Shown here piece after piece: positions 16,665-47,912 of a stretch of 64,000 nt of DNA. Every line of letters starts with the position of its first letter. Position 1 is the stretch's first letter. Location of the stretch: assembly GCA_016196755.1 (NCBI GenBank), contig JACPXC010000039.1, positions 10,645-74,644 of the forward strand, read 5' to 3'. Source of the DNA: Elusimicrobiota bacterium (lineage in GTDB: Bacteria; Elusimicrobiota; Elusimicrobia; UBA1565). A program made the translations under genes and the position numbers. The notes under the pieces were generated by a model that was not told the DNA's origin, ran no database searches, and saw only the letters and a list, made by a program, of their open reading frames with translations.

Positions 16665-16686
16665 AGTGTCCTCCGGTGTCAGCAGT

Positions 16687-16764: not shown

Positions 16765-16769
16765 GAAGC

Positions 16770-31800: not shown

Positions 31801-34800
31801 TGTCGAGCGTCCCGACCGCGCCCTGCTCGGTCCGGAACGCAAAATTCCCGCCGACCAGCTGCTCGGGCGAAGCGCCAGTCCTCACGAAGGCGGAATAGGT
31901 ATGGGCCGGGACGTCCACCGCCAGCCTGAAACGGTACGCGGTCCCGGCGCTGTAGGGGATCGGGGCGGCCGCCGCGTACGCGCCGCCGTTGCGCGCGTCG
32001 ATGAAGCCCGCCGGGTTGAAGCGGACGATCGAGGCCACCGCCGGATAGTCGGCCGCGGGGCCGTTGGAGAACCCCGCCACCCCGTCCATGCCGGCCTGAC
32101 CGGGGGTGGCGTCGAAGGTCGCTTCGAAGGACCCCGCCTGCGGCGAGAACGGCCGGTTCTGCCACGACCCCGCGCTGCTAAAGCAGGTCGGGTTGGGGGC
32201 GGGAACCGTCGAGACGTCTTGAGAAAAGACCGCGTCGACCCAGTAGTTCGTGGCCTGGAAGCCGTTCACAGGGAACGCCGGCGCCGCGCCATAGACGTAG
32301 CGCCCGTTGAGGGCCCCGGGCGCGTTGGCGGGCGCATGGAGCGGAGGGCTCTCGCGCGGGATGGTGAAGTAGTTGCGCGTCGCCGCGTAGCCTGTCGGCG
32401 AGTGGTAAGCCGCGACATAGACCGTGTTCGAGGCCACGGCGATGGGCACGGGGAATGACGTCGTCTGCCAGCCGGTGGACGTCTCGTTGGAGAAGGGGGC
32501 CGAGCCGAGCAGCCCGCCGGTGCTCGTGTAGAGGCGCGCCGTATGCGGGCCGTTGTTGCCGCTGACCTTGAAGAACCGGACGCCCTTGACGACCCCCGGC
32601 ACGTCCGAGAAGAAGCGCACGCCTAGGGTCAGCGGGTTGGGGTCTAGGTAGAACTCGTCATTCGCCGGGCCCTGGGTCGTCCAGAGCGAGGCTGTCGCGG
32701 TCGAGGAGGCCGGTGGAGGCGCGCTGGCGGCGAAGACCGTGAAGGCCGCGGCGTTTGAAACGCCTCCCTCGCCGCCGGGGACCGGGTTGAACACCGTGAC
32801 CGAAGCGGTGCCCGTTGACGCGACGTCGCCGGAGGAAATACTCGCGGTCAAGGTCGAGCCGCTGATGAAGGTCTTGGGCCTGCTCGAGCCGTTCCATCGC
32901 ACGACTGAATCGGGCGTGAAGTTGCCCCCGTTGACCGTCAGCGTAAAACCGGGCCCTCCGGCCGTCGCCGAGTTAGGCGAGAGTCCCGTGATGGAAGGCG
33001 CTGTCACGGACAAAGGCGCGCTGCCGCTCACCGAGCCGGAGGAGGCTATGATCCGCGCGGACCCGCCCGCCAGCCCAGTCGCGAACCCATACGCCGTCAC
33101 GGTGGCCACCGAAGGCGCGTCGCTCGACCAGCCGACCCCGGTCGGGCTCGGGTCGAAGACCTCCAGCGCGCTCCCGTTGCCTGTAGGGTCCGTGCCGCCG
33201 GCGACGTAGAGCTTGCCGGCGATAGCGGCGGCGGCGGGTCCGCCGCGCGCGGTGGGCATCGGCGGGCCCGGAGCCCAGACGTTGGCCGCCGGGTCATAGA
33301 CCCACAGGGCGTTGACCGGCTGGCTCGCGCCGTCCATGCCGCCGGCTAAGTACCATTTCCCGTTTATGACGTCGCCCGCCATCGCCGAGAGGACGGCCGG
33401 CATGCTGGCGCCCGTCGTCCACGCATTGGTCCCAGGGTCGTAAACGTCCACCTCCGGCCGGACGACGACGTCCTGGCCTCCGGTCACGTAGAACTTCCCC
33501 GCGATGGCGGTCCCCACGCCTCCGGCATGGGGCCGAGGCGCGTCGGGACCCGCCGTCCATGTTTGGGCTACGGTGTCGAAGATGTAGAGGCTCCGTTTGA
33601 AGCCCGCGAAGCCGTTGCAGGCGCTGAGCAGGTAGATCTTCGTCCCGATGACCGCGGCCTGGGAGCAGGCCGAGCGTTCCGGAACCGTCGGCCCGGCGCT
33701 CCAGGAGTTCAGGGCCGGATCGTAGACCGAGACCGTGTCGCTGGGCAAGGCCGGCGAGGTGGTCCACCCCCCGATCATGTAGATCTTGCCGCCGACGGCC
33801 GCCGCCGATCCTTGGTAGCGTCCCCGGTTGGCGCCCGGCGTCGGGGAGGAGACCGTGCTGTTAGGGGCGTTCAGCGGGGCCTTCGTCGACCATGAGTCGG
33901 CCGAAGGAGCGTACGCTTCCACGGTCGTCGTGTCGCTGGCGACATAGCCGCCGATGGCGTAGAGGACGCCGCCCGACGCGGCGCCCTGTAGGTCGCGGCG
34001 TCCCGACGGGAGCGGGGCTAACCCCGACCACGGGCCGGAGAGCGTGAGCGTCGAGCCGTCCGTATAGGTGCCGATCGCCCTGAAGGCCTGGCGCATGCCG
34101 ACCATCACCGCCGCGCTCGAGGGCGTGACGGAGATAGCGGCCAAGGAGGGAGATCCCCCGGGGCCCGTCGATATGGCGAGGTTGCAGACGGTTTCGCTTC
34201 CGGTAGCGGCGAAGAGCCCCAGGTTGTTGAGCGCCGCCACCGCGCCCTGCTCGGTCCGAAAAGCAAAATTGTTCCCCACCAGTTGCTCCGAACCCGCCCC
34301 GGACCGCACGAAGGCCGAATAGGTGTGGGCGGGTACGTTCACGGCCAGCCTGAAGCTGTAGGCGGTCCCGGCGCTGTAGGGGATCGAAGCGGCCGCCGCG
34401 TACGCGCCGCCGTTGCGGGCGTCGATGAAGCCCGCCGGGTTGAAGCGGACGATGGAGGCCACGGCCGGGTAGTCGGACGCGGGGCCGTTGGAAAAACCGC
34501 CCACGCCGTCCATCCCTGCCTGCCCGGGAGTGGCGTCGAAGGTCGCCTCGAATGAATCCGTCTGCGACGTGAAAGGACGGTTCTGCCAGGTTCCCGCGCT
34601 GGAGAAGCAGGTGGGATTGGGAGCGGGAACGGTCGAGGCGTTCTGAAAGAAGACCGCGTCGACCCAGTAGTTCGTGGCCTGGAAGCCGTTGACCGGGAAC
34701 GCCGGCGCCGCGCCGTAGACGTAGCGTCCGTTAAGGGCCCCGGGAGCGGTGGCGGGCGCATGGAGCGGAGGACTGTCGCGCGGGACGGTGAAGTAGTCGC

Positions 34801-36400
34801 GCGTCGCCGCGTAGCCGGTCGGCGAGTGGTACGCCGCGACATAGACCGTGTTCGAAGCCACGGCGATGGGCGCGGGGAAGGCCGTCGTCTGCCAGCCGGT
34901 GGACGTCTCGTTGGCGAAGGGGGCCGAGCCGAGCAGGCCGCCGGTGCTCGTGTAGAGGCGCGCCGCGTGCGGGCCGTCGTTGCCGCTCACCTTGAAGAAC
35001 CGCACGCCCGTCACGACCCCCGGCACGTCGGAGAAGAAGCGCACGCCGAGCGTCAGCGGGTTGGGGTCGAGGTAGAACTCGTTGTTCGCCGGGCCCTGGG
35101 TCGTCCAGAGCGTGGCCGTCGCGGTGGAGGACGGCGGAGGAGGAAGAGGAGGGGTCGATCCGGCGACCGAGAAGACCACGTCGACCCAGTAGTTGCTCGC
35201 CCGAGTGCTCGCGGTCGGGAACGCCGGCGCCGCGCCGTAGAGATAGAGCCCGTTGAGCGCCCCGGGCGCGCTGGCGGGGGCGTGCAGCGGCGCGTTGTCG
35301 CGCGGGGCGAGGAAATAGTCGCGGGTGACGGCGAAGCCCGATTGGGAATGATAGGAGGCCACGTAGGTCGTGCTCGCCGCGATCGGGATCGGCGCGGGGA
35401 AGAGCGCAGTCTGCCAGCCCGAGGCCGACTCCCCGGTGAAATTCACCGAACCCAGGAGCGCGCCGGCGTTGGTGTAGAGCCGCCCGACGTGGGGACCGGT
35501 CGCGCCGGTTTTATAGTAGCGGATGCCGTCGATGCGCCCGGCGACGTCCGAGCGAAAGCGCACGCCCAGCGACACGGGAGCCGGATCGTTGGAGAACTCG
35601 GCGGCGGCCGGGCCCAGAGAGGGAGCCCAGAGCGAGGCCGTGGTGGTCGACGCCAAGCCCCTCGACATGGCCTGGACCACGGTCTCGACGACCGTCCCTT
35701 GGGCCGAGCGGGCGGCCAACCAGTCCGTGAAGTCGATCAGCGTCCGCGAGCTGACCGAAAGGTCCTCGCAGCCGTCACAGATGTAGTGGAACACCAGCGG
35801 CACCCAGCCGCCGCCCGCCGCCTCGACGGCGCTCACGTAGCCTTGCAGCTGCGCCAGAGTCGTCGTGCTCTTGATCGATTCGGCCGAGCGTATGGCGAAG
35901 GGCTCGGGCGGAGGGAAGGGCTCGGCCTTGGCGCAGCCGACGCAGGAGAGCCCGCCCACGGCGCGGGCGTTCGAGTAGCCGCAGGCGGCGACGACCGACC
36001 GGACCCCCGCGTTGTTGGCCCCGAAGGGATAGGCGAAGGATTTGGGGTCGAAGCCCCAGGCCAGCAGCTGCTGGCGGTCGTCGCAGACTTGGCGCTCCGC
36101 CTCCGCGGCGGAGACTAAGGTAAGGTCCGCATGGGTCAGGGTATGGCCCGTGACCTCATGGCCGTCGGCAGCGAGGACGTCGAGCTGAGCGCGGGTCAGA
36201 AAGCCCCCGGCGCCGATCCGGTCCGTGTTCACGTAGAAGGTCCCCTTGAGGCCGCGCTGGCGGAGGATCTCCCCCGCCAGGGCCTGTCCGGACGTGGCGT
36301 CGTCGAAGGTGAGGCTGACCACCGTCTGGGCCGCTTGGGCCGAGACGGCCCCGCTCAGGGCCGCTAGGACCAGAAGCAAGCGCGGGAGGCGGATCTGCAT
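28859..36400 (-). CDS. Giant (2513 aa) secreted multidomain surface protein with T9SS-type C-terminal sorting domain
   Basis: Signal peptide MQIRLPRLLLVLAALSGAVSAQA. NodB-type polysaccharide deacetylase (VVSLTFDDATSGQ...). Four DUF4082-like units (LGVRFxSDVxG...NYWVDxVF). Two Kelch-like propeller blocks (GKIYMIGG, GKFYVTGG, DGRVLVTGG...). Ig-like/IPT-like segments. Final ~95 aa are FPNPVRG...VRVYDLTGRLV...GVYFYVVAARKDGQTETRTGKLAIVK, which is T9SS CTD-like. Confidence 0.9.
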   Translation of the reverse strand: MQIRLPRLLLVLAALSGAVSAQAAQTVVSLTFDDATSGQALAGEILRQRGLKGTFYVNTDRIGAGGFLTRAQLDVLAADGHEVTGHTLTHADLTLVSAAEAERQVCDDRQQLLAWGFDPKSFAYPFGANNAGVRSVVAACGYSNARAVGGLSCVGCAKAEPFPPPEPFAIRSAESIKSTTTLAQLQGYVSAVEAAGGGWVPLVFHYICDGCEDLSVSSRTLIDFTDWLAARSAQGTVVETVVQAMSRGLASTTTASLWAPSLGPAAAEFSNDPAPVSLGVRFRSDVAGRIDGIRYYKTGATGPHVGRLYTNAGALLGSVNFTGESASGWQTALFPAPIPIAASTTYVASYHSQSGFAVTRDYFLAPRDNAPLHAPASAPGALNGLYLYGAAPAFPTASTRASNYWVDVVFSVAGSTPPLPPPPSSTATATLWTTQGPANNEFYLDPNPLTLGVRFFSDVPGVVTGVRFFKVSGNDGPHAARLYTSTGGLLGSAPFANETSTGWQTTAFPAPIAVASNTVYVAAYHSPTGYAATRDYFTVPRDSPPLHAPATAPGALNGRYVYGAAPAFPVNGFQATNYWVDAVFFQNASTVPAPNPTCFSSAGTWQNRPFTSQTDSFEATFDATPGQAGMDGVGGFSNGPASDYPAVASIVRFNPAGFIDARNGGAYAAAASIPYSAGTAYSFRLAVNVPAHTYSAFVRSGAGSEQLVGNNFAFRTEQGAVAALNNLGLFAATGSETVCNLAISTGPGGSPSLAAISVTPSSAAVMVGMRQAFRAIGTYTDGSTLTLSGPWSGLAPLPSGRRDLQGAASGGVLYAIGGYVASDTTTVEAYAPSADSWSTKAPLNAPNSTVSSPTPGANRGRYQGSAAAVGGKIYMIGGWTTSPALPSDTVSVYDPALNSWSAGPTVPERSACSQAAVIGTKIYLLSACNGFAGFKRSLYIFDTVAQTWTAGPDAPRPHAGGVGTAIAGKFYVTGGQDVVVRPEVDVYDPGTNAWTTGASMPAVLSAMAGDVINGKWYLAGGMDGASQPVNALWVYDPAANVWAPGPPMPTARGGPAAAAIAGKLYVAGGTDPTGNGSALEVFDPSPTGVGWSSDAPSVATVTAYGFATGLAGGSARIIASSGSVSGSAPLSVTAPSITGLSPNSATAGGPGFTLTVNGGNFTPDSVVRWNGSSRPKTFISGSTLTASISSGDVASTGTASVTVFNPVPGGEGGVSNAAAFTVFAASAPPPASSTATASLWTTQGPANDEFYLDPNPLTLGVRFFSDVPGVVKGVRFFKVSGNNGPHTARLYTSTGGLLGSAPFSNETSTGWQTTSFPVPIAVASNTVYVAAYHSPTGYAATRNYFTIPRESPPLHAPANAPGALNGRYVYGAAPAFPVNGFQATNYWVDAVFSQDVSTVPAPNPTCFSSAGSWQNRPFSPQAGSFEATFDATPGQAGMDGVAGFSNGPAADYPAVASIVRFNPAGFIDARNGGAYAAAAPIPYSAGTAYRFRLAVDVPAHTYSAFVRTGASPEQLVGGNFAFRTEQGAVGTLDNLGLFAATGSETACNLAISTQPAAAPGAREWAATGPMPAVRQSHTMTRLPDGRVLVTGGGSDPTNTAEVYDPATGSFTVTGFMADQRYGHSAALLPNGKVLVFGGGNSDGFNVSAELFDPALGTFSPTGSMSALRGLGALLPNGKVLAVAGDGSAQLYDPATGVWGPTGSRAGGGAVSFTLLQNGKVLAAGGELSELYDPAAGTWSDTGSMGAARTGHSATLLADGRVLVSGGRPAAGAELYDPATGLWSATGPMALNRWRHEATLLPEGLVLAAGGENESGTGLSSAELYDPANGTWRPAAHMTTQRGAHRALLLADGRVLATGGRADEYLSSAELYVPCSGPCPVQNPVPVVYPPSGFAPRAAAEAGGPGFTLHVRGGRFVPGAAVRWNGSPRATTFLDEGGLNAEIPASDIAAAQTVRVTVFNPAPGGGESNELLFTVKPTFTPGVVIFSETFTRPNGLITNEYATNNPNDPASVKSDVWKVRVGSLFANGNQGWTGVNDDVRPNAGSTNGTGNDFIRLQTQRGDFGEVAVQLNVVNHGMPRAVFRDGLRVLLRVTPTTDYYFLQFNDNTGGIGIGKVVDGAQTYLLLASNDPIPFGSTQTVRARAVNLADGSVELTLDAYGKTWSLVDWGNFGRVLRDPGAVGLRGDHTEFSFDDFTVYAPDGSDLGPSPSPSPSSTATASLWTTQGPASNEFYLDPNPLTLGVRFFADVPGFVTGVRFFKVSGNNGPHTARLYTSTGGLLGSAPFANETSTGWQTTAFPAPIAVASNTVYVAAYHSPTGYAATRNYFTVPRESPPLHAPANAPGALNGRYVYGAAPAFPVNGYQATNYWVDAVFSQGVSTAPAGGGAGLSAFAPDPKARQEGAFPAVADPGFGFKAAYIFPNPVRGVKAATFRLQPGLAGGADVRVYDLTGRLVHSSSEFTDRGAFDDGNGLGPQFTYEHLWDVSGIGSGVYFYVVAARKDGQTETRTGKLAIVK
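29283..29766 (-). repeat. DUF4082-like unit, copy 4 (near-identical to copies 2 and 3)
   Basis: Exactly 2940 nt from copy 3. I counted 16 mismatches in 240 nt when comparing 29281-29520 with 32221-32460. Confidence 0.8.
31748..32706 (-). repeat. Segmental duplication copy B (DUF4082-like unit + ~160-aa unit X) inside giant gene
   Basis: Protein SSTATASLWTTQGPANDEFYLDPNPLTLGVRFF...CNLAIS repeats the block encoded at 34170-35130 with few substitutions. Offset is about 2424 nt. Confidence 0.75.
34170..35130 (-). repeat. Segmental duplication copy A (DUF4082-like unit + unit X)
   Basis: See copy B. The shared nucleotide string GACCGCGTCGACCCAGTAGTTCGTGGCCTGGAAGCCGTT lies at the same relative position. 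Confidence 0.75.
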
Positions 36401-36501: not shown

Positions 36502-37842
36502 TCAACGGGTCGGGAGAGGTCCCAAGAGCTCGATGAGCCTCAAGGTGTCGTGCGCCTGATAGTAGGCCTTCCCCACGCTCTGCGTCAGCCGCGGGTTGTA
36601 CTCGGTGAAAGCTCGGGCCGCGTCCAGGGCCTTGTCGACGCCCGCCTTATCATCATCGGCGGCCGCCTTCCGGGCCTCGGCCAGGAGCATGGGGACGAAC
36701 TCCCTGGCCTGGAGCTCCCCTTGGCGGAAGGCCTGCTCGACTAGGATGGAGGCGTCCTGATAGTTCATCCGGGCCCGCGCCTCGGCCTTGGCCGTTTTCA
36801 GGAGCGCCAGCGTTTCGTAAGGGTCGCCGGACCTCGCGGCCGCCCTAAGGATCCTCCCCACATGCTCCGCGGGCTGGCGCGCCGGGTCGATGGGGAGTTC
36901 CGCGCCGGGAGCGAATATCGGCGCGGCTTTACCGGGCGCCGGCTCGGGAGCGGCCTTGGCCTGGGCGGGCAGCGTGTTCATGAGGGCGGCCATGTTGACG
37001 AAGGTGGCGCCGGCCTGGTCCGCCGCGCGCGCGGCGTCGATCTTCCGGGCCAGGCCCGCGGCCCCGGCCGGGGCGCCGTCGCGCCCCAGCCCTTCCGCGG
37101 TGAGCACGATCCGGACGGCGGACAGTTCGGGATGCCGGGCCGACATGACCGTGACACCGTCGGCGTCCTTCATCGTGAACACGGGCCCGCGCTCGAAGAG
37201 CGGCGAGACGGCCAAGAGCACGCGCGCCGCGGCCAAGGAGGCTCCGGGGCCCAGCGCCGCGACCTCCGGGAGCCCGGCGACCCAGCTGTAAAAGCCATAG
37301 GCGCCGTTGAAATCCCGGGCGTCGACGCCTCCCACGCCGCCCGGAGCGGCCAGCGCTCCCTTGTCGAAAAGGAGGCCGAGGGCGGCGCCCCGCTCGGCCG
37401 AGCCCGATCTCGGGCTGACGGCCGCGCGCAGGGTCTCATCCTTGCCGAGGCGGTCTAAGACGGCGCGCGGACCGTCGGCGCCCGGCTCGGTCGGAGAGAC
37501 GGCGCGCGCTTGCGCGTCGGCGGAGGCCGGTACCGCGAAAGCCGCCGGGGCCGGGAGCGCGGCCGCGGCGGAAGGCGCTATCGCGGCCGCCAGGGGGCTG
37601 GGACGTGCCGCCGCCGCGGAAAGGGTCGGGACGCTCAGAATCGGGACGCCGCCGAGCCCAGCGCTCAGCGGGGCCAACGAGGCAGGCGTCCCCGGCGGGG
37701 GCGCCGCCGGGCTGACCTGGACGGGAAGTCCGCGCGCCGCCGGGACGCCGGTTCGGGTCACCTGGGAGGCGGCTTGGCCCGCGAGAAGAGCGAGCGTCAG
37801 CAGCGATAGCGCCGGCCGTCCTTCACGTAGACGTCGCGCCAT
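36502..37842 (-). CDS. Secreted Ala-rich hypothetical protein
   Basis: Signal-like N-terminus (ALSLLTLALLAGQAASQ), an Ala/Pro/Leu/Ser-rich region, and a helical C-terminal part. Sits between the giant gene and the next hypothetical in the same orientation. Confidence 0.6.
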   Translation of the reverse strand: MARRLREGRPALSLLTLALLAGQAASQVTRTGVPAARGLPVQVSPAAPPPGTPASLAPLSAGLGGVPILSVPTLSAAAARPSPLAAAIAPSAAAALPAPAAFAVPASADAQARAVSPTEPGADGPRAVLDRLGKDETLRAAVSPRSGSAERGAALGLLFDKGALAAPGGVGGVDARDFNGAYGFYSWVAGLPEVAALGPGASLAAARVLLAVSPLFERGPVFTMKDADGVTVMSARHPELSAVRIVLTAEGLGRDGAPAGAAGLARKIDAARAADQAGATFVNMAALMNTLPAQAKAAPEPAPGKAAPIFAPGAELPIDPARQPAEHVGRILRAAARSGDPYETLALLKTAKAEARARMNYQDASILVEQAFRQGELQAREFVPMLLAEARKAAADDDKAGVDKALDAARAFTEYNPRLTQSVGKAYYQAHDTLRLIELLGPLPTR

Positions 37843-37956: not shown

Positions 37957-39309
37957 TTACTGCGGCACGGGCAGCACACGCATGAGGGACTCGCGCACGC
38001 GCCGGCGCGCGGGCTCCAGAGCCGCGCCCGCCGCCTCCGCCATCTTGCGCCGACAGACCGCGCCGACCGCGCAGACGGCGTCCCTCGCGCCCTCGGCTCC
38101 TTCGCGCGCCCTGCGCGACGACCAGGCGCCCGCCCCCTCCGCGCGCTCCGCCGACCACTCAAAGGCCGCGACGGCCCCGTCGCGGCATTTCCCGGGCGCG
38201 GCGCAGACCGCGTCCCGCGTTCCGCGAAGCGCGGGAAGGTAGGTGTTTTGGCGCCAAAGCTCGGCGCGGTCCGAGAGGGTCAGCGGCGGCGGCGCGACCG
38301 TCATCGCGGAGGGGCCGGCCTCGTAATCCTCCGCGTCGTCCTGGATGCGCGCGAGCGCGCTGCCCGCCCGGAATACGAAGCCCTGCTCGCGCCACCGCGC
38401 CTTCAGCGCGGGGACGACGGCATCGCGCGCCGAGCCGAGGCGCGGATCGTCGTAATACCCGAAGACGGCGATGTCCTCGGCCGCTTGGAACGCCGCGTCC
38501 CCGCCTTCGCGCAGACGCCGCGTCGCGGCCTGCAGGACGATCCGCTCGTTTAGGCTCGCCAGCACGGCGCGCGCGGCCTCTCCGCGTTCGAGGTCCGACG
38601 CGGACTCGCGCAGGACGGCGTAGACGGCCAGCTCGTCGGTCTCGAGACCGTTGGCCGCCAGGAGGACGGCCGCGCGCTCGGCCGCCTCGCGGTCCGCGCG
38701 CTCGCCGGGGTCCAATTCCTCGCTCGCGCGCCCTGGCGCGCAGCCGCGAACCGCCTCGAGCAGGCCCCGGGCGACCTCCTTGCGACCGAGGACCGTGCGG
38801 TCCTCCGGCGTCCCCGCCTCGCGCTGGCGCGCGAGCAGCGCCGAGATCCCGTCGAGCGCCGCCGGGCCCGCGTGCGCGCGCTCCCGCCGGGAGCCTGAGC
38901 GACGCGGATCGAGCTCCGCGGCGAGCAGGCGCGTGATGCGTTCGAGGCTCGGGTCCTCCTCCGGCTCCGTCCTTGGATCCGCGAGCCAGCGCGCCAGGGC
39001 CTGAGCGTGGGCACGACGCGTCTCGGCCTCCATCCAATCGTGCCGCGATTGGCTATCGAGCAGGCTTTCCAACGCTCGCCGTGCACGCGGATCGTCGAGC
39101 CTCCCCGGTTCGGCGAAAAGCCAGTCGAACCCGTGACGGCGCGCGGGTTCCGACGGGATGCCGTTGCCGAAGCCGAGCCACTCCAGCGCCTCATCGAGAT
39201 CGGCGGGCGCGGGCGCGGATGCGGCATGCGCTCGGCTCGCGGAAAATGCCGCGGCGAAGATAGCCGCCGAGAGAAACGTCCGACTCCACGCTGGGAATAT
39301 TCCTTGCAT
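37957..39309 (-). CDS. Secreted hypothetical protein
   Basis: Track ORF 37957-39381. ATG 39309 gives MQGIFPAWSRTFLSAAIFAAAFSASRAHA as a signal peptide. Acidic/Arg-rich helical protein with no motif I recognise. Confidence 0.55.
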   Translation of the reverse strand: MQGIFPAWSRTFLSAAIFAAAFSASRAHAASAPAPADLDEALEWLGFGNGIPSEPARRHGFDWLFAEPGRLDDPRARRALESLLDSQSRHDWMEAETRRAHAQALARWLADPRTEPEEDPSLERITRLLAAELDPRRSGSRRERAHAGPAALDGISALLARQREAGTPEDRTVLGRKEVARGLLEAVRGCAPGRASEELDPGERADREAAERAAVLLAANGLETDELAVYAVLRESASDLERGEAARAVLASLNERIVLQAATRRLREGGDAAFQAAEDIAVFGYYDDPRLGSARDAVVPALKARWREQGFVFRAGSALARIQDDAEDYEAGPSAMTVAPPPLTLSDRAELWRQNTYLPALRGTRDAVCAAPGKCRDGAVAAFEWSAERAEGAGAWSSRRAREGAEGARDAVCAVGAVCRRKMAEAAGAALEPARRRVRESLMRVLPVPQ

Positions 39310-39386
39310 GATCACCACCCCCCGGATGATCCAAGGATGCATCGGCGCGTTCGTCTTCGCAAAGCCCCAAAGGGCCCGCATTGGCT

Positions 39387-39446
39387 GGGCCTAACGGCCT
39401 GAATTTTGGGCTCATGGCACTGAACCGCGGGCTAACAGGGCTGAAC
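39387..39446. repeat. Three direct repeats with exact 21-bp period
   Basis: GGGCCTAACGGCCTGAAT (39387), GGGCTCATGGCACTGAAC (39408), GGGCTAACAGGGCTGAAC (39429). Confidence 0.8.
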
Positions 39447-39469
39447 AGAGCCGGTCCGAGCTATGCAAA

Positions 39470-39805
39470 TTTACGCGCCTCGGGCGCGTGGATCGAAGAG
39501 TTGCGATACGGCCGCAACTCTTCGATCTCGTACGGATCAACGGAAAAACGGAAGACGATTGGGCGAGTCGTGTGCACGCTTCGCGCACGGTCCAAATGAT
39601 GAAAAAAACGTCGACTATCCACGTGGATAGTTCGGTGGATATCTTTCCGAATCAACCTGTGATTTCGTTCTGGAACGGCGTAAATCCGTGCGCGAAGCGT
39701 GCACACAGGCGGGCCAATCCTACTGCTCTTTGCCGTTCATTGCTCCAGATCGAAGGATTGCGGCCGTATCGCAATCCTTCGATCCACGCGCCCGAAGCGC
39801 GTAAA
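39470..39805. repeat. Low-GC, triply nested palindromic element (MITE-like, inverton-like or composite operator)
   Basis: Outer 58-nt inverted repeats 39470-39527 and 39748-39805 (53/58 identical). Inner perfect 21-nt inverted repeats 39570-39590 and 39686-39706. Central perfect 16-nt palindrome CTATCCACGTGGATAG at 39615-39630. Confidence 0.85.
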
Positions 39806-39944
39806 CTAACTTCTGGAGCCGTTTCAGAAGCCTACCCACACCTTCGTGCCATGAGCCAAGCTCATCTCCGCGAATTCTTTGCGAACCTAATTTCGCAAGA
39901 GTTCGCAGCCGCTACCTACACTTTTCGCGAAACGTCCGTTACAC

Positions 39945-39977
39945 TTCCCATTACGCGCGCGGGCGCGTACCCTCAAG
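39945..39977 (+). promoter_or_regulatory. Possible promoter of giant gene 2 with palindromic operator in the spacer
   Basis: TTCCCA (39945-39950), 17 nt (TTACGCGCGCGGGCGCG, a TACGCGC..GCGCGTA palindrome), TACCCT (39968-39973), CAAG, ATG 39978. The hexamers are weak matches. Confidence 0.3.
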
Positions 39978-42900
39978 ATGCGCACGAACAGCCCAAGGAT
40001 CTCCCCGAGCGCGCGGAGCCTGCTCGGCGCCCTCATCCTCTCGCTCGCCCTGCCGCGCGAGCTCCATGCCGACACCGCGGTCAAGACCGCCGTCGACGCC
40101 GCCTCCGTCAGCGGCGGGGCCGACTGGACCAACCCCGCCAACGTCCAAGGCGACGACGGCGCCTATGCCGATTTCAACGCCACCAGCCAGAGCTATCTGA
40201 CCATCAAGACCTTCGGCTTCTCCCTGCCGGTCGGCGCCACCGTCGACGGCGTCCAGGTGGTCGTCAACGGCCAAGGGGCCGGCGGAACCAACGCGCGAAG
40301 ACGCTTCCGGGCGGGCCTGACCAAGGACGGCGCCAATCTGGCGGGCACCGAGATGACGGCGCTGACCTTCCTCCAGGACGTGGATTCGGACATCACGACC
40401 GGCGGAGCCACCGACCTGTGGGGCACGACCTTGACCCGCGCGGAGGTCAACAGCGCGGACTTCGGGATCCTGATCCGGGACCAGAACACAACCGCCGATC
40501 TCCTGCGCTTCGACCATGCGACGGTGACCGTCTTCTACACCCCGGCCTCGCAGGCCACCGCGACCCCGACCGACGTAGCGCCCGCCGGCCTCGACCAAGG
40601 CGCCGAATCCGCCTTCGAGAAACTCTCGCTGGTCACCGACCAGGGGAACGCGGAATGGACGGCGGTCAAGGTGACCAAATCCGGGACCTTGGCCGACTCC
40701 GGCGTCACCTCGGTGAAGATATACCTCGACAACGGCAACGGCGTCTACGGCGGCGAGGACACCCTCATCTCCCCCGCCGTCACCGTCTTCGCGGGCGGCG
40801 TCGCCAACATCACGCTTTCGGCCGCGCAGACGCTTACGGCGACGGCCAAGGTCTACTTCGTCGTCTATGACCTCGAACCCTCGGCGGCGCCGGGCGCCAC
40901 GATCGGAGCCTCCATCGCCTCGCAGGCGGACCTCACGATCACCTCGCCCGACACCATCTCCTCGGCGAACTTCCCGGCGAACTCCGCCAACGCCACGGTG
41001 GGCGACGTGGCGGACACCGTCACGATGACGCCCACCGACCAGGCGCCCGGAAGCGCCGCGCAGGGGGCAGAGTTCGCGCTGGAGAGGCTGTCCTTGGTTA
41101 CCAACGCCGAGACCGCCTTGTGGACCGCCATCAAGGTCACCAAGGGAGGGACGCTCGGCGACGGCTACGTGACGACGGTCAAGATCTACGAGGACACCAG
41201 CGGCGACGGCTTCTACGGAGGCGGAGACACCCTCATCTCGCCGTCGGTCAACACGTTCACGTCCGGCTCGGTGACGATCACCCTGTCGGCGCCGCAGACC
41301 ATCACCACCAGCGCGAAGGCCTACTTCATCGTCTGCCAAATCGCGAGCGACGCCACGGTGGGTGCTACCATCGGCGCGCAGGCGGCGGCCGACACGGACC
41401 TCACCCTGAGCGCGCCGGACGCCGTGTCGGCGGCGAACTTCCCGGCCGCCTCCGCGAACACCGCCATCACCGACGTCGCCGACACGATCACGCTCACGCC
41501 CACCGACCTCGCCCCGGCGGACATCGTCCAGGGCTCGGACTACGCGGTGGAGAAGCTCTCGCTGGCGACCGGCGGCGACGCGGCCGTCTGGACGGCGGTC
41601 ACGGTGACCAAGACGGGCGATCTGGCCGACGGCGACGTCGCCTCCGTCAAGCTCTATCTCGACACCGGCAACGGCGTCTACGGCGCCGAGGACACTCTCC
41701 TGGCCAACGGCGCCTTCTCGGGCGGGGCCGCCGCGCTCAGCCTCTCTCCGGCCCAGACCATCACGACCTCCGCCCAGGTTTACTTCATCGTCTACGTCCT
41801 GACCTCCGGCGCCGCGCCGGGCGACACCATCGGCGCTCAACTCACGAACAACGCCAGCCTGACGGTGAGCGCCCCGGACACCGTCGCGACGACCAACTTC
41901 CCCGTCAACTCGTCAAATTCCACGGTCCTCCTTCAAGGCGACGAGATCACCGTCACGCCGACGGACCAGGCCCCCGGCAGCGTAAGCCAGGGGGCGGAGT
42001 TCGCCTTGCTCCGGCTCTCGATGGCGACCGACGCCAACACCGCGGAATGGACCGCGCTCAACGTGACCAAAGGCGGGACGGTGCCCGACGCGGGCATCGC
42101 GACGGTCAAGATCTACCTCGACGACGGCGACGGCGTCTACGACGCCGGCGACACCCTCATCTCCCCCGCCGTGACCGCGTTCTCGGGGGGCGCGGCGGCC
42201 GTCACGTTGACCGCCGCCCAGACCATCACCACCACCCCCAAGGTCTACTTCATCGTCTACGACCTCGAGAGCGACGCCTCCGCGGGCACGACCGTCGGGG
42301 CCTCGGTCGCGTCCAACAGCCAGCTGACCGTGACGACACCCGACACGGCGGCAAGCGCCAACCTGCCCGCGAACTCGGCCAACGCGACCATAAACGACGT
42401 GGCCGACACCGTGACCGTGACCCCGACCGACGCAGCACCGGCGAACATCGCCCAAGGCTCGGACTTCGCCCTGCTCAAGCTCTCGCTGGCGGCCGACGAC
42501 GACCAGGCGACCTGGACCAACCTGACCGTGACCAAGACCGGCGACCTGGCCGACGGCCAGGTCACCACGGTCAAGGTGTATCTAGACGACGGAGACGGGA
42601 CTTACGACGCCGGGGACACGCTGATCTCGCCGGCGGTCAACACGTTCACCGCCGGCGTGGTGAGCATCGCGATCTCGGCCTCCCAGGCGATCACGCCGGC
42701 GGCCAAGGTGTACTTCGTAGTCTACGCCTTGGAGGCGCTCGCCGCCGTCGGCGGCACCATAGGCGCGCGCGTGGCGGCCGCCGGCGACGTGACGGTCACG
42801 GGCGTGGACGGAGTCTCGGCGGCGAACCTTCCGGCGAACTCGACGGTCGCGAGCGTGGTCGACGGGGCCGACACCGCCACGGTGACCCCGACCGACCAGG

Positions 42901-45900
42901 CGCCCGCCAACATCGCGCAGGACGCCGACTACTCGGTGCTGAGGCTCTCGCTGGCCATGGACCAGGAGACCGCGCAGTGGACGGCTATCACGGTGACCAA
43001 GACGGGGACCGCGGCCGACGCCGCCGTCGATTCCATCAAAATCTACCTCGACGACGGCGACGCCGTCTACGACGCCGGCGACACGCTCATCTCGGCGGCG
43101 GTGACGCCCTTCTCGGGCGGCTCGGCCGCGATCACCCTGACGGCGGCGCAGACGCTGACGACGAGCGCCAAGGTATACTTCGTCGTCTACGACCTCGACC
43201 CCGAGGCGGCGGCGGGCGACACGATCGGAGGCTCGGTCGGCGCGGCCTCGGCGCTGACGCTGAGCGCCCCGGACGCGGTCTCCTCGGCGAACCTCCCGGC
43301 CGACTCGACGGATTCCTCGATCACCGAGCTTGCGGACACCATCACCGTCACGCCGACCGACATCGCTCCCGCCTTCGCGGTCCGCGGCCAGGAGACAGCT
43401 CTTCTCAAGCTCTCTCTGGCCACCCCCGCCGACTCGGCCTTATGGACCGTGCTGGCCCTGACGAAACTCGGGAGCCTGGGCAATGCCAGGATCACCGCCA
43501 TCAGGGTCTATCTCGATGACGGCGACGGGCTCTACGGCGTGGGCGACTCGCTCTTGGGCAGCGGGACCTACGGCGGCGGCGGGACCGTCGCCCTGTCTCC
43601 GGCCCAGACCATCAACGCTGCCCCGAAGGTGTACTTCGTCGTGTACCTGCTGGCGATCGGTTCCCCCCTGGGCGCCACCACGGGCGTCCGGGTCGCCGCG
43701 AACACCGAGCTGACGGTGACCGCACCCGACCTCGTCAGCGCCGCGAACTTCCCCGCCGACTCGTCCTTGGCCACCGTCGCCGATCCCCCCGCCCTGGTGA
43801 CGGTGACCCCGACCGACCTGGCCCCCGCCAACGTGAACCAGGGCGCCGACTACGCGGCGCTGAGATTGGCCATGGCGACCGGGGGCAACTCGGCCACCTG
43901 GTCGGCGCTCACGGTGACCAAGACCGGGACTCTCGCCGACGGCTCGATCACCACGGTCAAGATCTACCTCGACGACGGCGACGCCGTCTACGACGCCGGC
44001 GACACCCTCATCTCGCCGCCCGTGACGACCTTCTCGGGCGGGGCCGCCGCCATCACCCTGAGCGCGGCCCAGACCCTCTCCACCACGAGCCAGGACTATT
44101 TCGTCGTCTACACCTTGACCGCCACGGCTCTCCCCGGCGCGACGCTCGGGGCCGAGCTCACCGCCAACACCGACCTCACGCTGGACTTAAACAACACCGT
44201 CGCTGCGACCAACTTCCCGATCAACTCGACGAACTCGACGGTGGTCGACGTCGCCGACACGATCACCGTCACGCCGCTCGATCAGGCTCCGGCCGACGTC
44301 GCCCAGGGCGCCGACTTCGCGCTGCAGCGCTGGTCGATCGCCGCCGGGGGCGACCAGGCGCTGTGGACGGCGCTCACGGTGACCAAGACCGGCACGCTCG
44401 CCGACGGCTCGATCACGACGGTGAAGATATACCTCGACGACGGCGACGCCGGCTACGACGCCGGCGACACGCTCATCTCACCGCCGGTCACTACCTTTTC
44501 CGGAGGCTCGGCCGCCATCACGCTGAGCGCGGCTCAGACGCTCACCACCTCGGCGAAGGTCTACTTCATCGTCTATCAGCTCGCCGCCGACGCGACCGTG
44601 GGCGGCACGGTCGGCGCCCAGGTCGCGGCGAACACCGACGTGACGGTGACGGCTCCCGACCTCGTGGCCGCGGCCAATTTCCCGGCCGACTCGACCGACT
44701 CGAACGTGACCGACGTGGCCGACACGATCACGCTCACGCCCACCGACCTCGCTCCGGCCAACGTCGTGCAGGGCGACGAGTACGCGGTGGAGAAGCTCTC
44801 CTTGGCGACCGGCGGCGACCAAGCGAGCTGGACCGCGATCACGGTCACCAAGACCGGCTCCAGCCCGGACGGCGACGTGGACACGGTGAAGGTGTACCTC
44901 GACAACGGCAACGGGACCTGGGGCGGCGAGGACACCCTGGTCTCGCCCCCGGTCAACACCTTCTCGGCCGGCGCGGCCGCGATCACGCTGTCGGCGGCCC
45001 AGACGATCAACACCACGGCCAAGGTCTATTTCATCATCTACAAGGTCAACCTCTCCGCCGCGTTCCCGAACACCCTCGGCGCGGAGGTGACCGCCGACAC
45101 CGACCTCACGGTGAGCGCTCCGGACCTCGTCAGCGCGGCCAATTTCCCGGTCAACTCCGCCAACTCCAACGTCCTGGAGCGCGGCGACCAGATCACCGTG
45201 ACGCCGACGGACCTGGCGCCGGGCAGCGTCGCTCAGGACTCGGACTTCGCCCTGCTCCGGCTCTCGATGGTCACCGACGTGAACTCCGCCCAGTGGACGG
45301 CCGTCAACGTCGCCAAAGCCGGCGACCTCGCCGACGCCAAGGTCAGCTCCGTGAAGATCTACCTCGACGACGGCGACAACGGTTATGACGGCGGCGACAC
45401 CTTGATCTCCCCGGGGGTCACGACGTTCTCGGCGGGCGCGGCGGCCATCACGCTGACGGCGGCCCAGACCATCGGCACGCCCCCCAAGGTATATTTCGTG
45501 GTCTACGACCTGGCCAGCGACGCCCCGGTGGGAGACACCATCGGGGCGAGCATCGCCTCCAAGAACGAGCTGACCATCACGGTGCCCGACGTCGTGGTCG
45601 ACGTGAACTTCCCGGCCGACTCGACGAACTCACCCCTCACCGACATCGCCGACACCGTCACCGTCACGCCGACCGACCTCGCCCCGGCGAGCATCGCCCA
45701 GGCCTCGGACTTCGCCCTGCTCAAACTCTCGCTGGCAACCAACGAGGACGCGGCGACCTGGACAAACCTCACGGTGACCAAGACCGGCGACCTGGCCGAC
45801 GGTGACGTGAGCGCGGTCAAGGTCTACTTCGACGACGGCGACGGGAGCTACGACGGCGGGGACACCCTGGTCTCGTCGGGACTCGACACGTTCACGGCGG

Positions 45901-47912
45901 GAACGGCGGACATCGCCCTCTCGGCCGCGCAGACCATCACGCCGAGCGCCAAGACGTACTTCGTGGTCTATACCTTGGAGGCGCTCGCCGCCGTCGGCGA
46001 CACGATCGGCGCCCAGGTCGCGGCCGCCGGGGACCTGACCGTCTCGGGCGTGGACGTCGTCTCGGCGTCGAACTTCCCGGCGGACTCGACCGACTCCAGC
46101 GTGATCGACGGGGCGGACACCGTCACCGTGACTCCCACCGACCAGGCGCCGGGGAGCATCGCGCAGGACGCGGACTACTCGGCGCTGCGGCTCTCGATGC
46201 TCACCAACCAGGAAACCGCGCTGTGGACCGCGCTCACGGTGACCAAGACCGGGACCGCCGCCGACGCGGCGGTCGACTCCGTGAAGGTCTATATCGACGA
46301 CGGCGACAACGGCTACGACGCAGGCGACACCCTCATCTCGCCGGCGGTGACGACGTTCTCGGGCGGCTCGGCGGCGATCACGCTGTCGGCGGCGCAGACG
46401 CTGACGACCACGGCCAAGGTCTACTTCGTGGTCTATGACCTCGACCCGGAGGCCGTCGTCGGCGCCACCATCGGCGCCTCCCTGGGCGCGGCGTCGGCGC
46501 TGACGGTCAGCGCCCCGGACGCGGTCTCCTCGGCCAATTTCCCGGCCGATTCGACGAACTCCGGCGTCACCGACGTCGCCGACACGATCACGGTGACCCC
46601 CACCGACACCGCCCCCGCCAACATCGGGCAGGGCGAGACCTATTCCCCGCTCAAGCTCTCGATGGCTACCGCGGTGGACCAGGCGGTCTGGACCGCGCTC
46701 ACCGTCACCAAGCTCGGAAACCTCGCCGACGGCCAGATCACCACGGTCCGGGTCTACCTGGACGACGGCGATGGGACTTACGACGCCGGCGACACCTTGG
46801 TCTCGCCGCTGACGAGCACCTTCGCCGGGGGCTCGGTCGCGATCACCCTGTCGGCGGCCCAGACGATCGGCACCACCCCCAAGGCCTACTTCATCGTCTA
46901 CATCCTCGCCGCCGCCGCCCCGGTCGGCAACACGATCGGCGCCCGGGTGACGAACAACGCCAGCCTGAGCGTCACCGCCCCGGACACGGTGTCCGCCGCG
47001 AACTTCCCCGCGGATTCCGCTCTCTCCAGCGTGATCCTGGCCAGCGTGGTCACCGTATCCCGCGCCAACCTCGCTCCGGCCGAGATCGGCCAGGGCTCGG
47101 ACTTCGCGCTCGAGAGCCTCTCGGTGCTCACCGACGCGGAGACCGCGGTCTGGACCGACGTCAGGCTGACCAGGCTGGGAAATCTGGCGGCGGCCGACAT
47201 CACGGCGGTGAGGATCTACCTCGACGACGGCAACGGAGTCTACGGCCCGGAGGACACCCAGCTAGCCACCGGAAAATTCGGGATCCTGACCTTGAGTCCC
47301 GCCCAGACCATCACGACCTCGCCCACGCTTTACTTCGTGGTCTACGTCCTGCCGGGCGCGGCGCCGATCGGGGACACCACCGGCGCCAGCCTCACCCAGG
47401 CGAACTTCACCGTCACGGGCCCCGACACCGTCGCGGGGACGAATTTCCCCCTCGACTCGACGCTGGCCACCGTGGCGGCGCGCGAGCTCGCCGTCGTCTT
47501 GTCGGAGACCCTCATCGAGGCCGGCGACCTCGCTGTCAACGGCGAGTACGTCATCACGACCAACGTGACCGCCGTCAACAACGGCAACGGCCCCCAGACC
47601 TACGACCTCAAAGCCCAGCCGATCACCGGCGGCACGCCGTGGGCTCTGGGCGCGGCGCCCGACTTCGACGTCTTCACCCTGCGGGCGGTGGCCGGCGCCG
47701 CCGAGCCGCCGCTCGGGGATTTCGGCGCCGAGGACGCGCTGAGCGGAGCCGGGGAGCTGTGCACGAGCACCGTCTTCGCGCGCGGCACGGCGCGCTGCGA
47801 CAAGCAGGCCGCCGGCGCCAGCACGGTCCTCTGGCTGAAGGTCGGGATGCCGACCATCACCAGCACCGAGGCCGTGCAGGACATCCAGGTCACGGTGACC
47901 GCCAATCCATGA
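39978..47912 (+). CDS. Giant (2644 aa) secreted protein with 15 tandem ~154-aa repeats
   Basis: Signal peptide MRTNSPRISPSARSLLGALILSLALPRELHA. A ~165-aa N-terminal domain (..WTNPANVQGDDGAYADF..). Fifteen units of the pattern PTDxAP..QG..FA..LSL.T....WT...VTKTG.LADG.V..VKIYLDDGDG.YD.GDTLIS....F.GG.A.ITLSAAQT....KVYF.VY.L......G.TIGA......LT...PD.V...NFP..S. A ~150-aa C-terminal domain. No T9SS CTD. Confidence 0.9.
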   Translation: MRTNSPRISPSARSLLGALILSLALPRELHADTAVKTAVDAASVSGGADWTNPANVQGDDGAYADFNATSQSYLTIKTFGFSLPVGATVDGVQVVVNGQGAGGTNARRRFRAGLTKDGANLAGTEMTALTFLQDVDSDITTGGATDLWGTTLTRAEVNSADFGILIRDQNTTADLLRFDHATVTVFYTPASQATATPTDVAPAGLDQGAESAFEKLSLVTDQGNAEWTAVKVTKSGTLADSGVTSVKIYLDNGNGVYGGEDTLISPAVTVFAGGVANITLSAAQTLTATAKVYFVVYDLEPSAAPGATIGASIASQADLTITSPDTISSANFPANSANATVGDVADTVTMTPTDQAPGSAAQGAEFALERLSLVTNAETALWTAIKVTKGGTLGDGYVTTVKIYEDTSGDGFYGGGDTLISPSVNTFTSGSVTITLSAPQTITTSAKAYFIVCQIASDATVGATIGAQAAADTDLTLSAPDAVSAANFPAASANTAITDVADTITLTPTDLAPADIVQGSDYAVEKLSLATGGDAAVWTAVTVTKTGDLADGDVASVKLYLDTGNGVYGAEDTLLANGAFSGGAAALSLSPAQTITTSAQVYFIVYVLTSGAAPGDTIGAQLTNNASLTVSAPDTVATTNFPVNSSNSTVLLQGDEITVTPTDQAPGSVSQGAEFALLRLSMATDANTAEWTALNVTKGGTVPDAGIATVKIYLDDGDGVYDAGDTLISPAVTAFSGGAAAVTLTAAQTITTTPKVYFIVYDLESDASAGTTVGASVASNSQLTVTTPDTAASANLPANSANATINDVADTVTVTPTDAAPANIAQGSDFALLKLSLAADDDQATWTNLTVTKTGDLADGQVTTVKVYLDDGDGTYDAGDTLISPAVNTFTAGVVSIAISASQAITPAAKVYFVVYALEALAAVGGTIGARVAAAGDVTVTGVDGVSAANLPANSTVASVVDGADTATVTPTDQAPANIAQDADYSVLRLSLAMDQETAQWTAITVTKTGTAADAAVDSIKIYLDDGDAVYDAGDTLISAAVTPFSGGSAAITLTAAQTLTTSAKVYFVVYDLDPEAAAGDTIGGSVGAASALTLSAPDAVSSANLPADSTDSSITELADTITVTPTDIAPAFAVRGQETALLKLSLATPADSALWTVLALTKLGSLGNARITAIRVYLDDGDGLYGVGDSLLGSGTYGGGGTVALSPAQTINAAPKVYFVVYLLAIGSPLGATTGVRVAANTELTVTAPDLVSAANFPADSSLATVADPPALVTVTPTDLAPANVNQGADYAALRLAMATGGNSATWSALTVTKTGTLADGSITTVKIYLDDGDAVYDAGDTLISPPVTTFSGGAAAITLSAAQTLSTTSQDYFVVYTLTATALPGATLGAELTANTDLTLDLNNTVAATNFPINSTNSTVVDVADTITVTPLDQAPADVAQGADFALQRWSIAAGGDQALWTALTVTKTGTLADGSITTVKIYLDDGDAGYDAGDTLISPPVTTFSGGSAAITLSAAQTLTTSAKVYFIVYQLAADATVGGTVGAQVAANTDVTVTAPDLVAAANFPADSTDSNVTDVADTITLTPTDLAPANVVQGDEYAVEKLSLATGGDQASWTAITVTKTGSSPDGDVDTVKVYLDNGNGTWGGEDTLVSPPVNTFSAGAAAITLSAAQTINTTAKVYFIIYKVNLSAAFPNTLGAEVTADTDLTVSAPDLVSAANFPVNSANSNVLERGDQITVTPTDLAPGSVAQDSDFALLRLSMVTDVNSAQWTAVNVAKAGDLADAKVSSVKIYLDDGDNGYDGGDTLISPGVTTFSAGAAAITLTAAQTIGTPPKVYFVVYDLASDAPVGDTIGASIASKNELTITVPDVVVDVNFPADSTNSPLTDIADTVTVTPTDLAPASIAQASDFALLKLSLATNEDAATWTNLTVTKTGDLADGDVSAVKVYFDDGDGSYDGGDTLVSSGLDTFTAGTADIALSAAQTITPSAKTYFVVYTLEALAAVGDTIGAQVAAAGDLTVSGVDVVSASNFPADSTDSSVIDGADTVTVTPTDQAPGSIAQDADYSALRLSMLTNQETALWTALTVTKTGTAADAAVDSVKVYIDDGDNGYDAGDTLISPAVTTFSGGSAAITLSAAQTLTTTAKVYFVVYDLDPEAVVGATIGASLGAASALTVSAPDAVSSANFPADSTNSGVTDVADTITVTPTDTAPANIGQGETYSPLKLSMATAVDQAVWTALTVTKLGNLADGQITTVRVYLDDGDGTYDAGDTLVSPLTSTFAGGSVAITLSAAQTIGTTPKAYFIVYILAAAAPVGNTIGARVTNNASLSVTAPDTVSAANFPADSALSSVILASVVTVSRANLAPAEIGQGSDFALESLSVLTDAETAVWTDVRLTRLGNLAAADITAVRIYLDDGNGVYGPEDTQLATGKFGILTLSPAQTITTSPTLYFVVYVLPGAAPIGDTTGASLTQANFTVTGPDTVAGTNFPLDSTLATVAARELAVVLSETLIEAGDLAVNGEYVITTNVTAVNNGNGPQTYDLKAQPITGGTPWALGAAPDFDVFTLRAVAGAAEPPLGDFGAEDALSGAGELCTSTVFARGTARCDKQAAGASTVLWLKVGMPTITSTEAVQDIQVTVTANP
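40566..47498 (+). repeat. Coding tandem-repeat array: 15 units, organised as a duplicated 7-unit super-repeat plus one
   Basis: Unit 1 starts at 40566 (aa 197), unit 8 at 43809 (aa 1278), unit 15 at 47061 (aa 2362). Units 3-7 resemble units 10-14 far more than they resemble their neighbours. Confidence 0.8.

Follow-up and report, generated by a model that had tools for sequence, protein, structure and literature searches.

What kind of element is a long, repeatedly mirrored palindromic segment that lies between two divergent operons for giant secreted or surface proteins? This question is raised by a 64-kb stretch of DNA from an uncultivated Elusimicrobiota bacterium, called the window hereafter, on whose numbering all coordinates of the element are given. 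The element lies at about 39470 to 39805, and the original prediction offered three explanations for it: a miniature inverted-repeat transposable element (MITE), an invertible promoter segment, and a composite operator or structured RNA. The last of these fits best, as conserved blocks are set in non-similar spacers and belong to palindrome types of the core promoter found at orthologous genes. Tentatively, and at somewhat less than even confidence, we regard the element as the central part of a divergent control region with mirror symmetry, which is shared by both operons and involves no foreign insertion.

Nested dyad symmetry around a common axis

The element is real and unusually elaborate, and its nested dyad symmetry is far above chance expectation. 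All three layers of symmetry described earlier are present where they had been placed. The outer layer is an inverted repeat of 59 nt (39470-39528 and 39747-39805, 92% complementary) with 218 bp between its two arms, so that a short intergenic segment is flanked by inverted repeats. Each arm holds two hairpins (Table 1), of which A' has a perfect 15-bp stem and a 7-nt loop and B' is a small GC hairpin. The loop of the right A' is the reverse complement of that of the left, and the two A' sites are therefore mutually inverted. For the small hairpin the prediction had given ACGCGCC-N3-GGCGCGT in each arm; this is exact for the left arm, whereas the right arm has six pairs and a C.A mismatch on the + strand, a position that reads as a U.G pair on the - strand. 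The inner 21-nt repeat is perfect, is 75% identical to the small arm hairpin and has 2 matches in the 64 kb against 0.01 expected. The 16-nt central palindrome CTATCCACGTGGATAG and the third GTGGATA were likewise recovered, and only the A-run needed correction, as it lies at 39602-39608 and not at 39601-39607. All three TATCCAC heptamers of the window sit in the central palindrome and the adjoining GTGGATA.

Moreover, a fourth layer lies outside the ends of the element as first delimited: a perfect 12-nt mirrored box, GGCTCATGGCAC, found on both sides of the same axis, which extends the symmetric unit to about 39409-39857, or about 449 bp. Reading outward, the order on each side is the 21-nt box, about 40 nt, A' (the 15-bp palindrome), B' (the GC palindrome), 40-49 nt and the 12-nt box, with mirrored spacings left and right of 41 and 40 nt between arm and 21-nt box and of 49 and 40 nt between 12-nt box and arm. 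These two series flank a unique 95-bp core carrying the three TATCCAC half-sites. Because the series is repeated about an axis at roughly 39636, both operons have the same modules upstream, ordered and oriented alike.

The axis is shared closely by all layers, at 39633 for the pair of 12-nt boxes and at 39637.5 and 39638 for the others, within 5 nt of each other. It also lies 6-11 nt from the midpoint (39643.5) of the 668-bp spacer between the start codons at 39309 and 39978; by our own estimate, a random insertion point would match such centring (about 6 nt) in roughly 4% of cases. We compared the two sides by mirror-similarity tests, which give the fraction of shuffled sequences reaching the observed similarity. 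The conserved blocks are 92-100% identical in mirror orientation, while the stretches between them are not similar: the fraction was 0.79 for the spacers from 12-nt box to arm and 0.11 for those from arm to 21-nt box, neither being significant. Between the halves of the 95-bp core there is no mirror similarity (0.91). The significant similarity of the flanks (0.004) is carried by the pair of 12-nt boxes. An earlier description of the stretch between outer and inner repeats as partly similar in inverted orientation thus holds for one short block (ATCAACGGAAAA / ATGAACGGCAAA) and not for the stretch as a whole. Conserved blocks amid non-similar spacers point to constraint on the blocks, and this pattern fits better with such constraint than with a recent duplication or insertion. 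Mirror homology of the entire spacer out to the start codons was considered and rejected, as its proximal parts gave a fraction of 0.08 and match at non-mirrored positions.

The base composition of the locus leads in the same direction. The element had been described as AT-richer than everything around it; its low GC is real, yet it extends beyond the element, with 52-57% GC throughout the intergenic spacer (39310-39977) against about 70% in the surroundings. Low GC is thus common to the whole spacer, including the part with the conserved promoter of the right-hand gene, and gives no sign of foreign DNA.

Five boxes of the CT(G/A)AAC type occur in the left flank of the element (39388-39446), starting at 39391, 39399, 39420, 39432 and 39441 with a spacing of about 8-21 nt. 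An additional CTAAC is found at 39806-39810, directly outside the right arm.

A conserved promoter next to the element and its palindromes

Relatives of the N-terminal region of the right-hand giant protein come mainly from Elusimicrobiota metagenome-assembled genomes (MAGs). At the related loci compared here, amino-acid identity to the right-hand protein is 52% for L002 and L003, 49% for L004, 44% for L007 and 40-48% for L005 and L006, and it reaches 63% for L010, a metagenome contig. In L002, L007 and L010 an OmpR-type response regulator gene lies directly upstream of the orthologue on the same strand, and the intergenic spacer is only about 90-135 bp long. Within it these three loci have the architecture of window positions 39866-39977, namely TTGCGAA/TTCGCAA boxes, TAYACT, 5-7 nt, a CG-rich palindrome (of the ACGCGCG...CGCGTAC type) and the ATG. 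TTGCGAA-type boxes are also present in L003, which is grouped with L002, and in L004, where TATCCT and a GGCGCGCC palindrome replace TAYACT and motif B. From this shared architecture to the right of the element it follows that the right-hand gene has a conserved promoter of its own, and that the element is a lineage-specific addition upstream of it.

The two palindromes of this native promoter, motifs A and B, recur in type within the arms. The pattern TTGCG-N4-10-CGCAA occurs 3 times in the 64 kb against 0.40 expected, in both A' hairpins and in motif A (39879-39898), and ACGCGC-N3-7-GCGCGT occurs 4 times against 0.24 expected, in both B' hairpins, in motif B and at one coding-region site. 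Three of the window's four TTGCGAA heptamers are in the intergenic spacer, one near the left gene. In fact, the order of A' and then B' toward the adjacent gene in each arm is the order of A and then B in the native promoter. Judged by these shared patterns, A' (TTGCG-N7-CGCAA) and B' (ACGCGC-N3-GCGCGT) appear to be versions of the two palindromes of the conserved core promoter.

The same loci suggest that the synteny of regulator and giant gene is conserved in other Elusimicrobiota and was lost in the window. The window's best match to the regulator of the orthologues is the gene at 53302-54009, only 37-40% identical, against 50% between the regulators of L002 and L010. The product of this gene is of the OmpR type, as is that of the gene at 20993-21688.

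Some further observations were made at these loci. A methylmalonyl-CoA-mutase-type gene precedes the regulator gene in L002 and L010. TATCC...GGATA inverted half-sites lie near the -10 or the start codon in L010 (2946-2957, TATCCGGATA) and in L004 (274-298, TATCC-N12-GGATA); they resemble the half-sites of CTATCCACGTGGATAG of the window, a likeness that could be due to chance. The contigs L005 and L006 belong to one Elusimicrobia MAG (JACQYT01) and have a palindromic repeat in common, AGGGTAGAGGGTAGAG...CTCTACCCTCTACCCT, at 2684-2745 and 2596-2680, respectively. It lies some 100-300 bp upstream of two giant-gene paralogues and, in L006, has a T-run after it. This repeat may be a repeated terminator or an element like the repetitive extragenic palindromes (REPs).

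A proposed shared control region for two divergent operons

We favour a shared control region because conserved blocks, centring between the divergent starts, a single copy in all the data searched, the lack of a target-site duplication and the palindrome types of the local promoter are found together. Under this reading, dimeric DNA-binding regulators would occupy the palindromes on both sides, and the two surface-protein operons would be controlled together. A candidate regulator would be an OmpR-type protein, like the one whose gene precedes the orthologues, with the TTGCGAA-type sites as its targets. Should transcription begin in the core, both mRNAs would carry an identical, stable two-hairpin leader. 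We infer protein binding, co-regulation, transcription starts and an RNA role from the layout of the locus.

Similar arrangements are known. Like divergent control regions with repeated palindromic operators and like the non-inverting "inverted-repeat promoters" (PMC11602134), the element lies between divergent operons and has its palindromes around one axis; it is single-copy, its GC content is below that of the coding DNA on either side, and it has types of site in common with a core promoter. It differs from them in that its repeat unit is unusually long (59 nt, with two adjacent hairpins), that four nested layers extend over about 450 bp, and that regulator and promoter are candidates only.

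Several points weigh against a shared control region. The mirror-symmetric element is absent from all the orthologous loci compared, so that its conservation has no comparator, and on the left side the first gene is an orphan, which leaves that side without a comparator as well. The motifs shared with the orthologous promoters are short palindromes with half-sites of 5-7 nt, seen at a handful of loci. At 59 nt, the 92% identical two-hairpin repeat far exceeds the usual length of an operator. No clear orthologue of the OmpR-type regulator linked to the orthologues is encoded in the window. A scan of 39200-40100 with the sigma-70 consensus, which may not be that of the host phylum, gave no promoter in either direction; to our knowledge, the promoters and regulators of Elusimicrobiota are largely uncharacterised. 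Quasi-palindrome template-switch mutagenesis, a templated repair, can keep palindromes perfect without selection. Finally, the regulator binding and the start sites are steps that we infer.

If the blocks are indeed shared operators or leader hairpins, an uncultivated bacterium would be coordinating two very large surface-protein operons from one region. The locus would then supply binding motifs, namely TTGCG-N7-CGCAA, ACGCGC-N3-GCGCGT, the 21-nt box, GGCTCATGGCAC and the TATCCAC triplet. The general significance is limited, with a single locus in one uncultivated metagenomic lineage and no comparators.

Further copies and the possibility of a mobile element

Long, sharply bounded terminal repeats (the 59-nt arms) with subterminal repeats inside them, the lack of credible coding capacity, a GC content below that of the genome and the absence of the element from all orthologous loci, where promoters take up about 90-135 bp, would suit a MITE or foldback-type non-autonomous transposon, or its decayed remnant, inserted upstream of the giant gene. 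Such an element should leave further copies and a target-site duplication, both of which the original prediction had proposed to look for; no further copy turned up in the window, in related loci or in nucleotide collections, and no duplication at the ends of the element. The A' hairpin, searched in the exact degenerate form GATCGAAGNNTTGCG-N5-9-CGCAANNCTTCGATC, had 0 matches in 185,579 species-representative genomes, JGI metagenomes and IMG/VR, collections that do not hold the source contig itself, and a "distant" blastn search of 39400-39860 against plasmids and phages gave no match. The arm was also sought in the remaining 63 kb of the window and in about 54 kb from related loci, 12 related or overlapping loci being covered in all, with an exact pattern, blastn-short, nhmmer and a covariance model. 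No second copy turned up; the matches were at chance level only, namely one of 17 nt within a coding region (18447-18463) and sub-threshold noise. No target-site duplication flanks the element, either at the ends of the arms (CAAA|...|CTAA, 39470 / 39805) or at those of the 12-nt boxes (TTTTG|...|AAGCT, 39409 / 39857).

Coding capacity was considered and rejected. One frame is open across the whole element (39395-40870, + strand) and enters the giant gene out of frame, with 194 codons within the spacer; such openness is reached by 3% of shuffles, which is marginal, and the peptide encoded at 39395-39976 has no similar protein among 5.8 billion predicted. The open frame is probably due to chance.

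Other features of the locus also speak against insertion. The ends of the element are not discrete, since the perfect 12-nt boxes, mirrored about the same axis, are found 40-49 nt beyond the arms. The palindromes of its arms are of the types seen in the native promoter, its low GC continues beyond it, and its centre is within about 6 nt of the midpoint between the start codons. Among the bacterial MITEs whose ends are structured are the Correia elements of Neisseria, ERIC and RUP. The element is like these in its long terminal inverted repeats, its noncoding nature, its intergenic position near genes, its long hairpin potential and the near-IHF-like site AATCAACCTGTGA inside it; it is unlike them in that multi-copy distribution and target-site duplication were not found, symmetry passes its ends and the arms resemble local promoter motifs. 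REPs number tens to hundreds in a genome and are associated with a RAYT transposase gene. As in REPs and REPINs, hairpin-forming palindromic units form an intergenic inverted pair here, yet there is a single pair in the 64 kb, the window has no transposase-like or RAYT gene, and the spacing of 257 bp is much above that of a REPIN. Taken with the mirrored box outside its ends, these results lead us to consider a mobile origin quite unlikely.

Hairpins, possible RNA roles and a possible absence of function

Folding 39460-39815 as single-stranded DNA yields -121.5 kcal/mol, compared with -60.4 +/- 3.9 for shuffled sequences (z = -15.7). The arm hairpins are very stable as RNA on either strand (z about -6 to -8), the left arm reaching z about -7.7 on both strands, with energies of -38 to -39 kcal/mol. 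Five differences separate the arms. Four of them make up two adjacent pairs that are changed on both sides (A-T/G-C to G-C/A-T), which agrees with the two compensatory pairs noticed before, and the fifth is a change of C-G to U.G on the inward-reading strand only; all 22 pairs remain paired. When five random substitutions were simulated, two double changes with the stem intact arose in 6.6e-5 of trials. The proposal that each hairpin is itself under selection thus has statistical support (P about 7e-5), yet templated quasi-palindrome correction could yield the same pattern free of selection. Covariation analysis of the two sequences is essentially powerless, as 127 of 500 shuffles reach the observed values.

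Perhaps, then, the hairpins act in RNA, either as identical 5' leader structures on both divergent mRNAs, with a role in stability or processing, or as part of a small RNA of about 200 nt, read inward on the - strand, that would begin near 39810 and end near 39600 at the central hairpin and a U7 run. Both variants draw on the stability of the hairpins, on the compensated pairs and on the fifth difference, which keeps pairing on the inward-reading strand only. The small RNA would in addition use a terminator-like feature, present on the - strand only, in which the central palindrome (39614-39631) is followed by CGACGTTTTTTT, with a T7 run. Its T-run begins 5 nt past a weak A/T-rich stem, however, and no promoter was identified in either direction. 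Neither arm is an intrinsic terminator, as no U-tract follows either hairpin in either direction. Rfam 15 gave no family even in a scan with a cut-off of E = 10, the only match being a chance one of 14 bits to mir-486 (E = 7.2), and two sequences provide next to no power to detect covariation. An RNA role would also leave the 12-nt box and the TATCCAC sites unexplained, and as the sole explanation we consider it very unlikely.

Templated correction opens a further reading, in which the element has no function and is an old inverted duplication, with templated quasi-palindrome correction and gene conversion from arm to arm keeping its palindromes perfect. Compensated stems can arise in this way without selection, and the length of the arms, 59 nt, would allow conversion now and then. 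Boxes of 21 and 12 nt, however, are too short for efficient conversion and are nonetheless identical amid randomised spacers, and the motif types shared with the orthologous promoters would not be accounted for. We give little credence to this explanation.

Other candidates were set aside. The TATCCAC sites are three 7/9 matches to the DnaA box TTATCCACA and lie beside the A7 run. A replication origin or DnaA cluster was rejected, as the skew changes along with the coding strands of the giant genes and with the sign of a terminus, and there is no global switch in gene orientation. The central 10 nt, TCCACGTGGA, match the core of parS, while the outer 3+3 positions are different; with one site and no parAB nearby, a parS function was set aside. 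A sigma-54 promoter at the 12-nt box was rejected as well, since TGGCAC is present there while the GG-N10-GC spacing is unmet and the site points inward.

Is the segment invertible?

The A' hairpins can also be read as recombination sites. Each consists of 15-bp inverted half-sites around an asymmetric 7-bp spacer (ATACGGC / GCCGTAT), which is the core architecture of tyrosine-recombinase sites; the spacer is identical in both, and the sites are inverted with respect to each other. A recombinase encoded at a distance could use them as recombination cores and flip about 257 bp including the asymmetric 95-bp core. The flip would turn round either a promoter, if the core has one, or the hairpin and T7 run that look like a - strand terminator, and so alter the relative expression of the two surface-protein operons. 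Asymmetry is confined to the central 95 bp, where the terminator-like hairpin is the one clearly directional feature, and the neighbouring genes code for giant secreted or surface proteins.

In sites of the lox, FRT and dif type, inverted half-sites of 11-13 bp enclose a 6-8 bp asymmetric spacer, and both partners have the same spacer. The A' sites are like them in their inverted half-sites and identical asymmetric spacer, and differ from them in the length of the half-sites (15 bp), in having no known recombinase and in being indistinguishable from an ordinary stem-loop; any hairpin with a 7-nt loop shows the same architecture. The element further resembles invertons such as fimS, hin and the Bacteroides polysaccharide and surface-protein switches in that inverted repeats flank about 220-260 bp beside surface-protein genes and candidate core sites share an identical asymmetric spacer. 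It is unlike them in that over half of the segment is itself mirror-symmetric. Most described invertons have shorter repeats than those of the element, and we know of no characterised inverton in Elusimicrobiota. Surface-protein neighbours are common for invertons (PMC11892184; PMC11602134), and the element is in their usual size range, most of those in the PhaseFinder and DeepInverton surveys being shorter than 300 bases (PMC11602134, PMC11892184). Yet inverted-repeat promoters that do not invert are common as well (PMC11602134).

Several observations speak against inversion. A Pfam scan of the 45 open reading frames of the window returned no tyrosine or serine recombinase, no integrase and no transposase, and the sigma-70 consensus scan found no convincing promoter within the element, so that the original prediction was right on both counts. 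Recombinases acting at a distance are known, however, Mpi being an example (cited in PMC11602134). The right-hand gene, moreover, already has a conserved promoter that its orthologues use without the element. A single crossover in the spacer would give hybrid sites with two mismatched stem positions each, which leaves the perfect palindromes observed unexplained. Exact-protein look-ups gave two short Logan contigs (SRR12113417, SRR12113416) as the only other assemblies of the locus; they are 100% identical to the window and end at 39224 (L001) and 39493 (L012); the alternative orientation is seen in neither, and neither spans the element. The end at 39493 differs from the branch point expected for a mixture of orientations (about 39517), and L001 stops short of the spacer. 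On balance we consider an invertible segment unlikely.

A stricter form of this idea is a two-way toggle, in which a recombinase encoded at another locus would flip the 95-bp core between lox-like 15+7+15 sites and the cell would express either the leftward operon with its DUF4082/Kelch giant or the rightward operon of the 2644-aa protein, the mirrored 21-nt and 12-nt boxes acting as accessory sites for the recombination complex. If this is true, it would mean phase variation of giant surface proteins in Elusimicrobiota, with one switch choosing between two surface structures; we rate it as more doubtful still than inversion in general, and as slightly less probable than a mobile origin. A divergent control region that does not invert is still the reading that we prefer.

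Genomic context

The window is ordinary chromosomal DNA of about 70% GC, whose genes include those for aromatic amino-acid biosynthesis, Kup, fatty-acid or polyketide-type enzymes, two-component systems, MotA/MotB and FliF/FliG-like proteins. The flanking operons are listed with the parts of the element in Table 1. For the first leftward gene, the ATG at 39309 is most likely the start, because MQGIFPAW... opens a signal peptide and GGTGGTGA precedes it. The sole match of its product in protein databases is an entry of 358 aa, 100% identical and with no source listed, which we take to be the window's own protein.

Table 1. Features of the intergenic spacer, its flanking genes and the regulator genes at orthologous loci
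Feature	Position	Strand	Description
Left outermost 12-nt box	39409-39420		GGCTCATGGCAC; perfect inverted repeat of 39846-39857
Left arm	39470-39528		B' 39473-39489, ACGCGCC-TCG-GGCGCGT; A' 39491-39527, GATCGAAGAGTTGCG-ATACGGC-CGCAACTCTTCGATC
Left 21-nt box	39570-39590		GTGTGCACGCTTCGCGCACGG; perfect repeat, itself an imperfect palindrome, B'-like
Asymmetric core, 95 bp	39591-39685		A7 run 39602-39608; CTATCCACGTGGATAG 39615-39630; GTGGATA 39635-39641
Right 21-nt box	39686-39706		Perfect repeat
Right arm	39747-39805		A' 39748-39784, GATCGAAGGATTGCG-GCCGTAT-CGCAATCCTTCGATC; B' 39786-39802
Right outermost 12-nt box	39846-39857		GTGCCATGAGCC
Motif A	39870-39906	+	TTGCGAA / TTCGCAA palindrome, GCGAATTCTTTGCGAA-CCTAAT-TTCGCAAGAGTTCGC; hairpin z = -5.0
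-10-like TACACT	39940-39945	+	Precedes motif B
Motif B	39953-39968	+	ACGCGCGCGGGCGCGT; ends 9 nt before the ATG at 39978
Rightward giant gene	39978-47912	+	2644-aa repeat protein, signal peptide, no Pfam match
First leftward gene	37957-39309	-	450 aa, signal peptide, orphan
Second leftward gene	36502-37842	-	446 aa
Third leftward gene	28859-36400	-	2513 aa; polysaccharide deacetylase, DUF4082 and Kelch domains (Pfam)
Fourth leftward gene	27984-28964	-	PorV-like
OmpR-type regulator gene upstream of giant-gene orthologue	L002 3434-4135; L007 about 2300-2852; L010 about 2157-2848		

Downstream of the right-hand operon lie paralogous genes for AAA_14 + DUF4143 ATPases (50108-51346 and 57553-58698) and a PIN-domain gene (51359-51766). 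Elsewhere in the window, a second long palindrome of low GC (43%) is found at 16677-16774, between two - strand genes and directly upstream of a parvulin-like gene, with no T-run after it. Its 44-nt arms match at 89%, with about 30 bp perfect (GGTGTCAGTCTTTCGGATGTTTCGGAAGTT ... AACTTCCGAAACATCCGAAAGACTGACACC), and it is the only other long AT-richer hairpin of the window.

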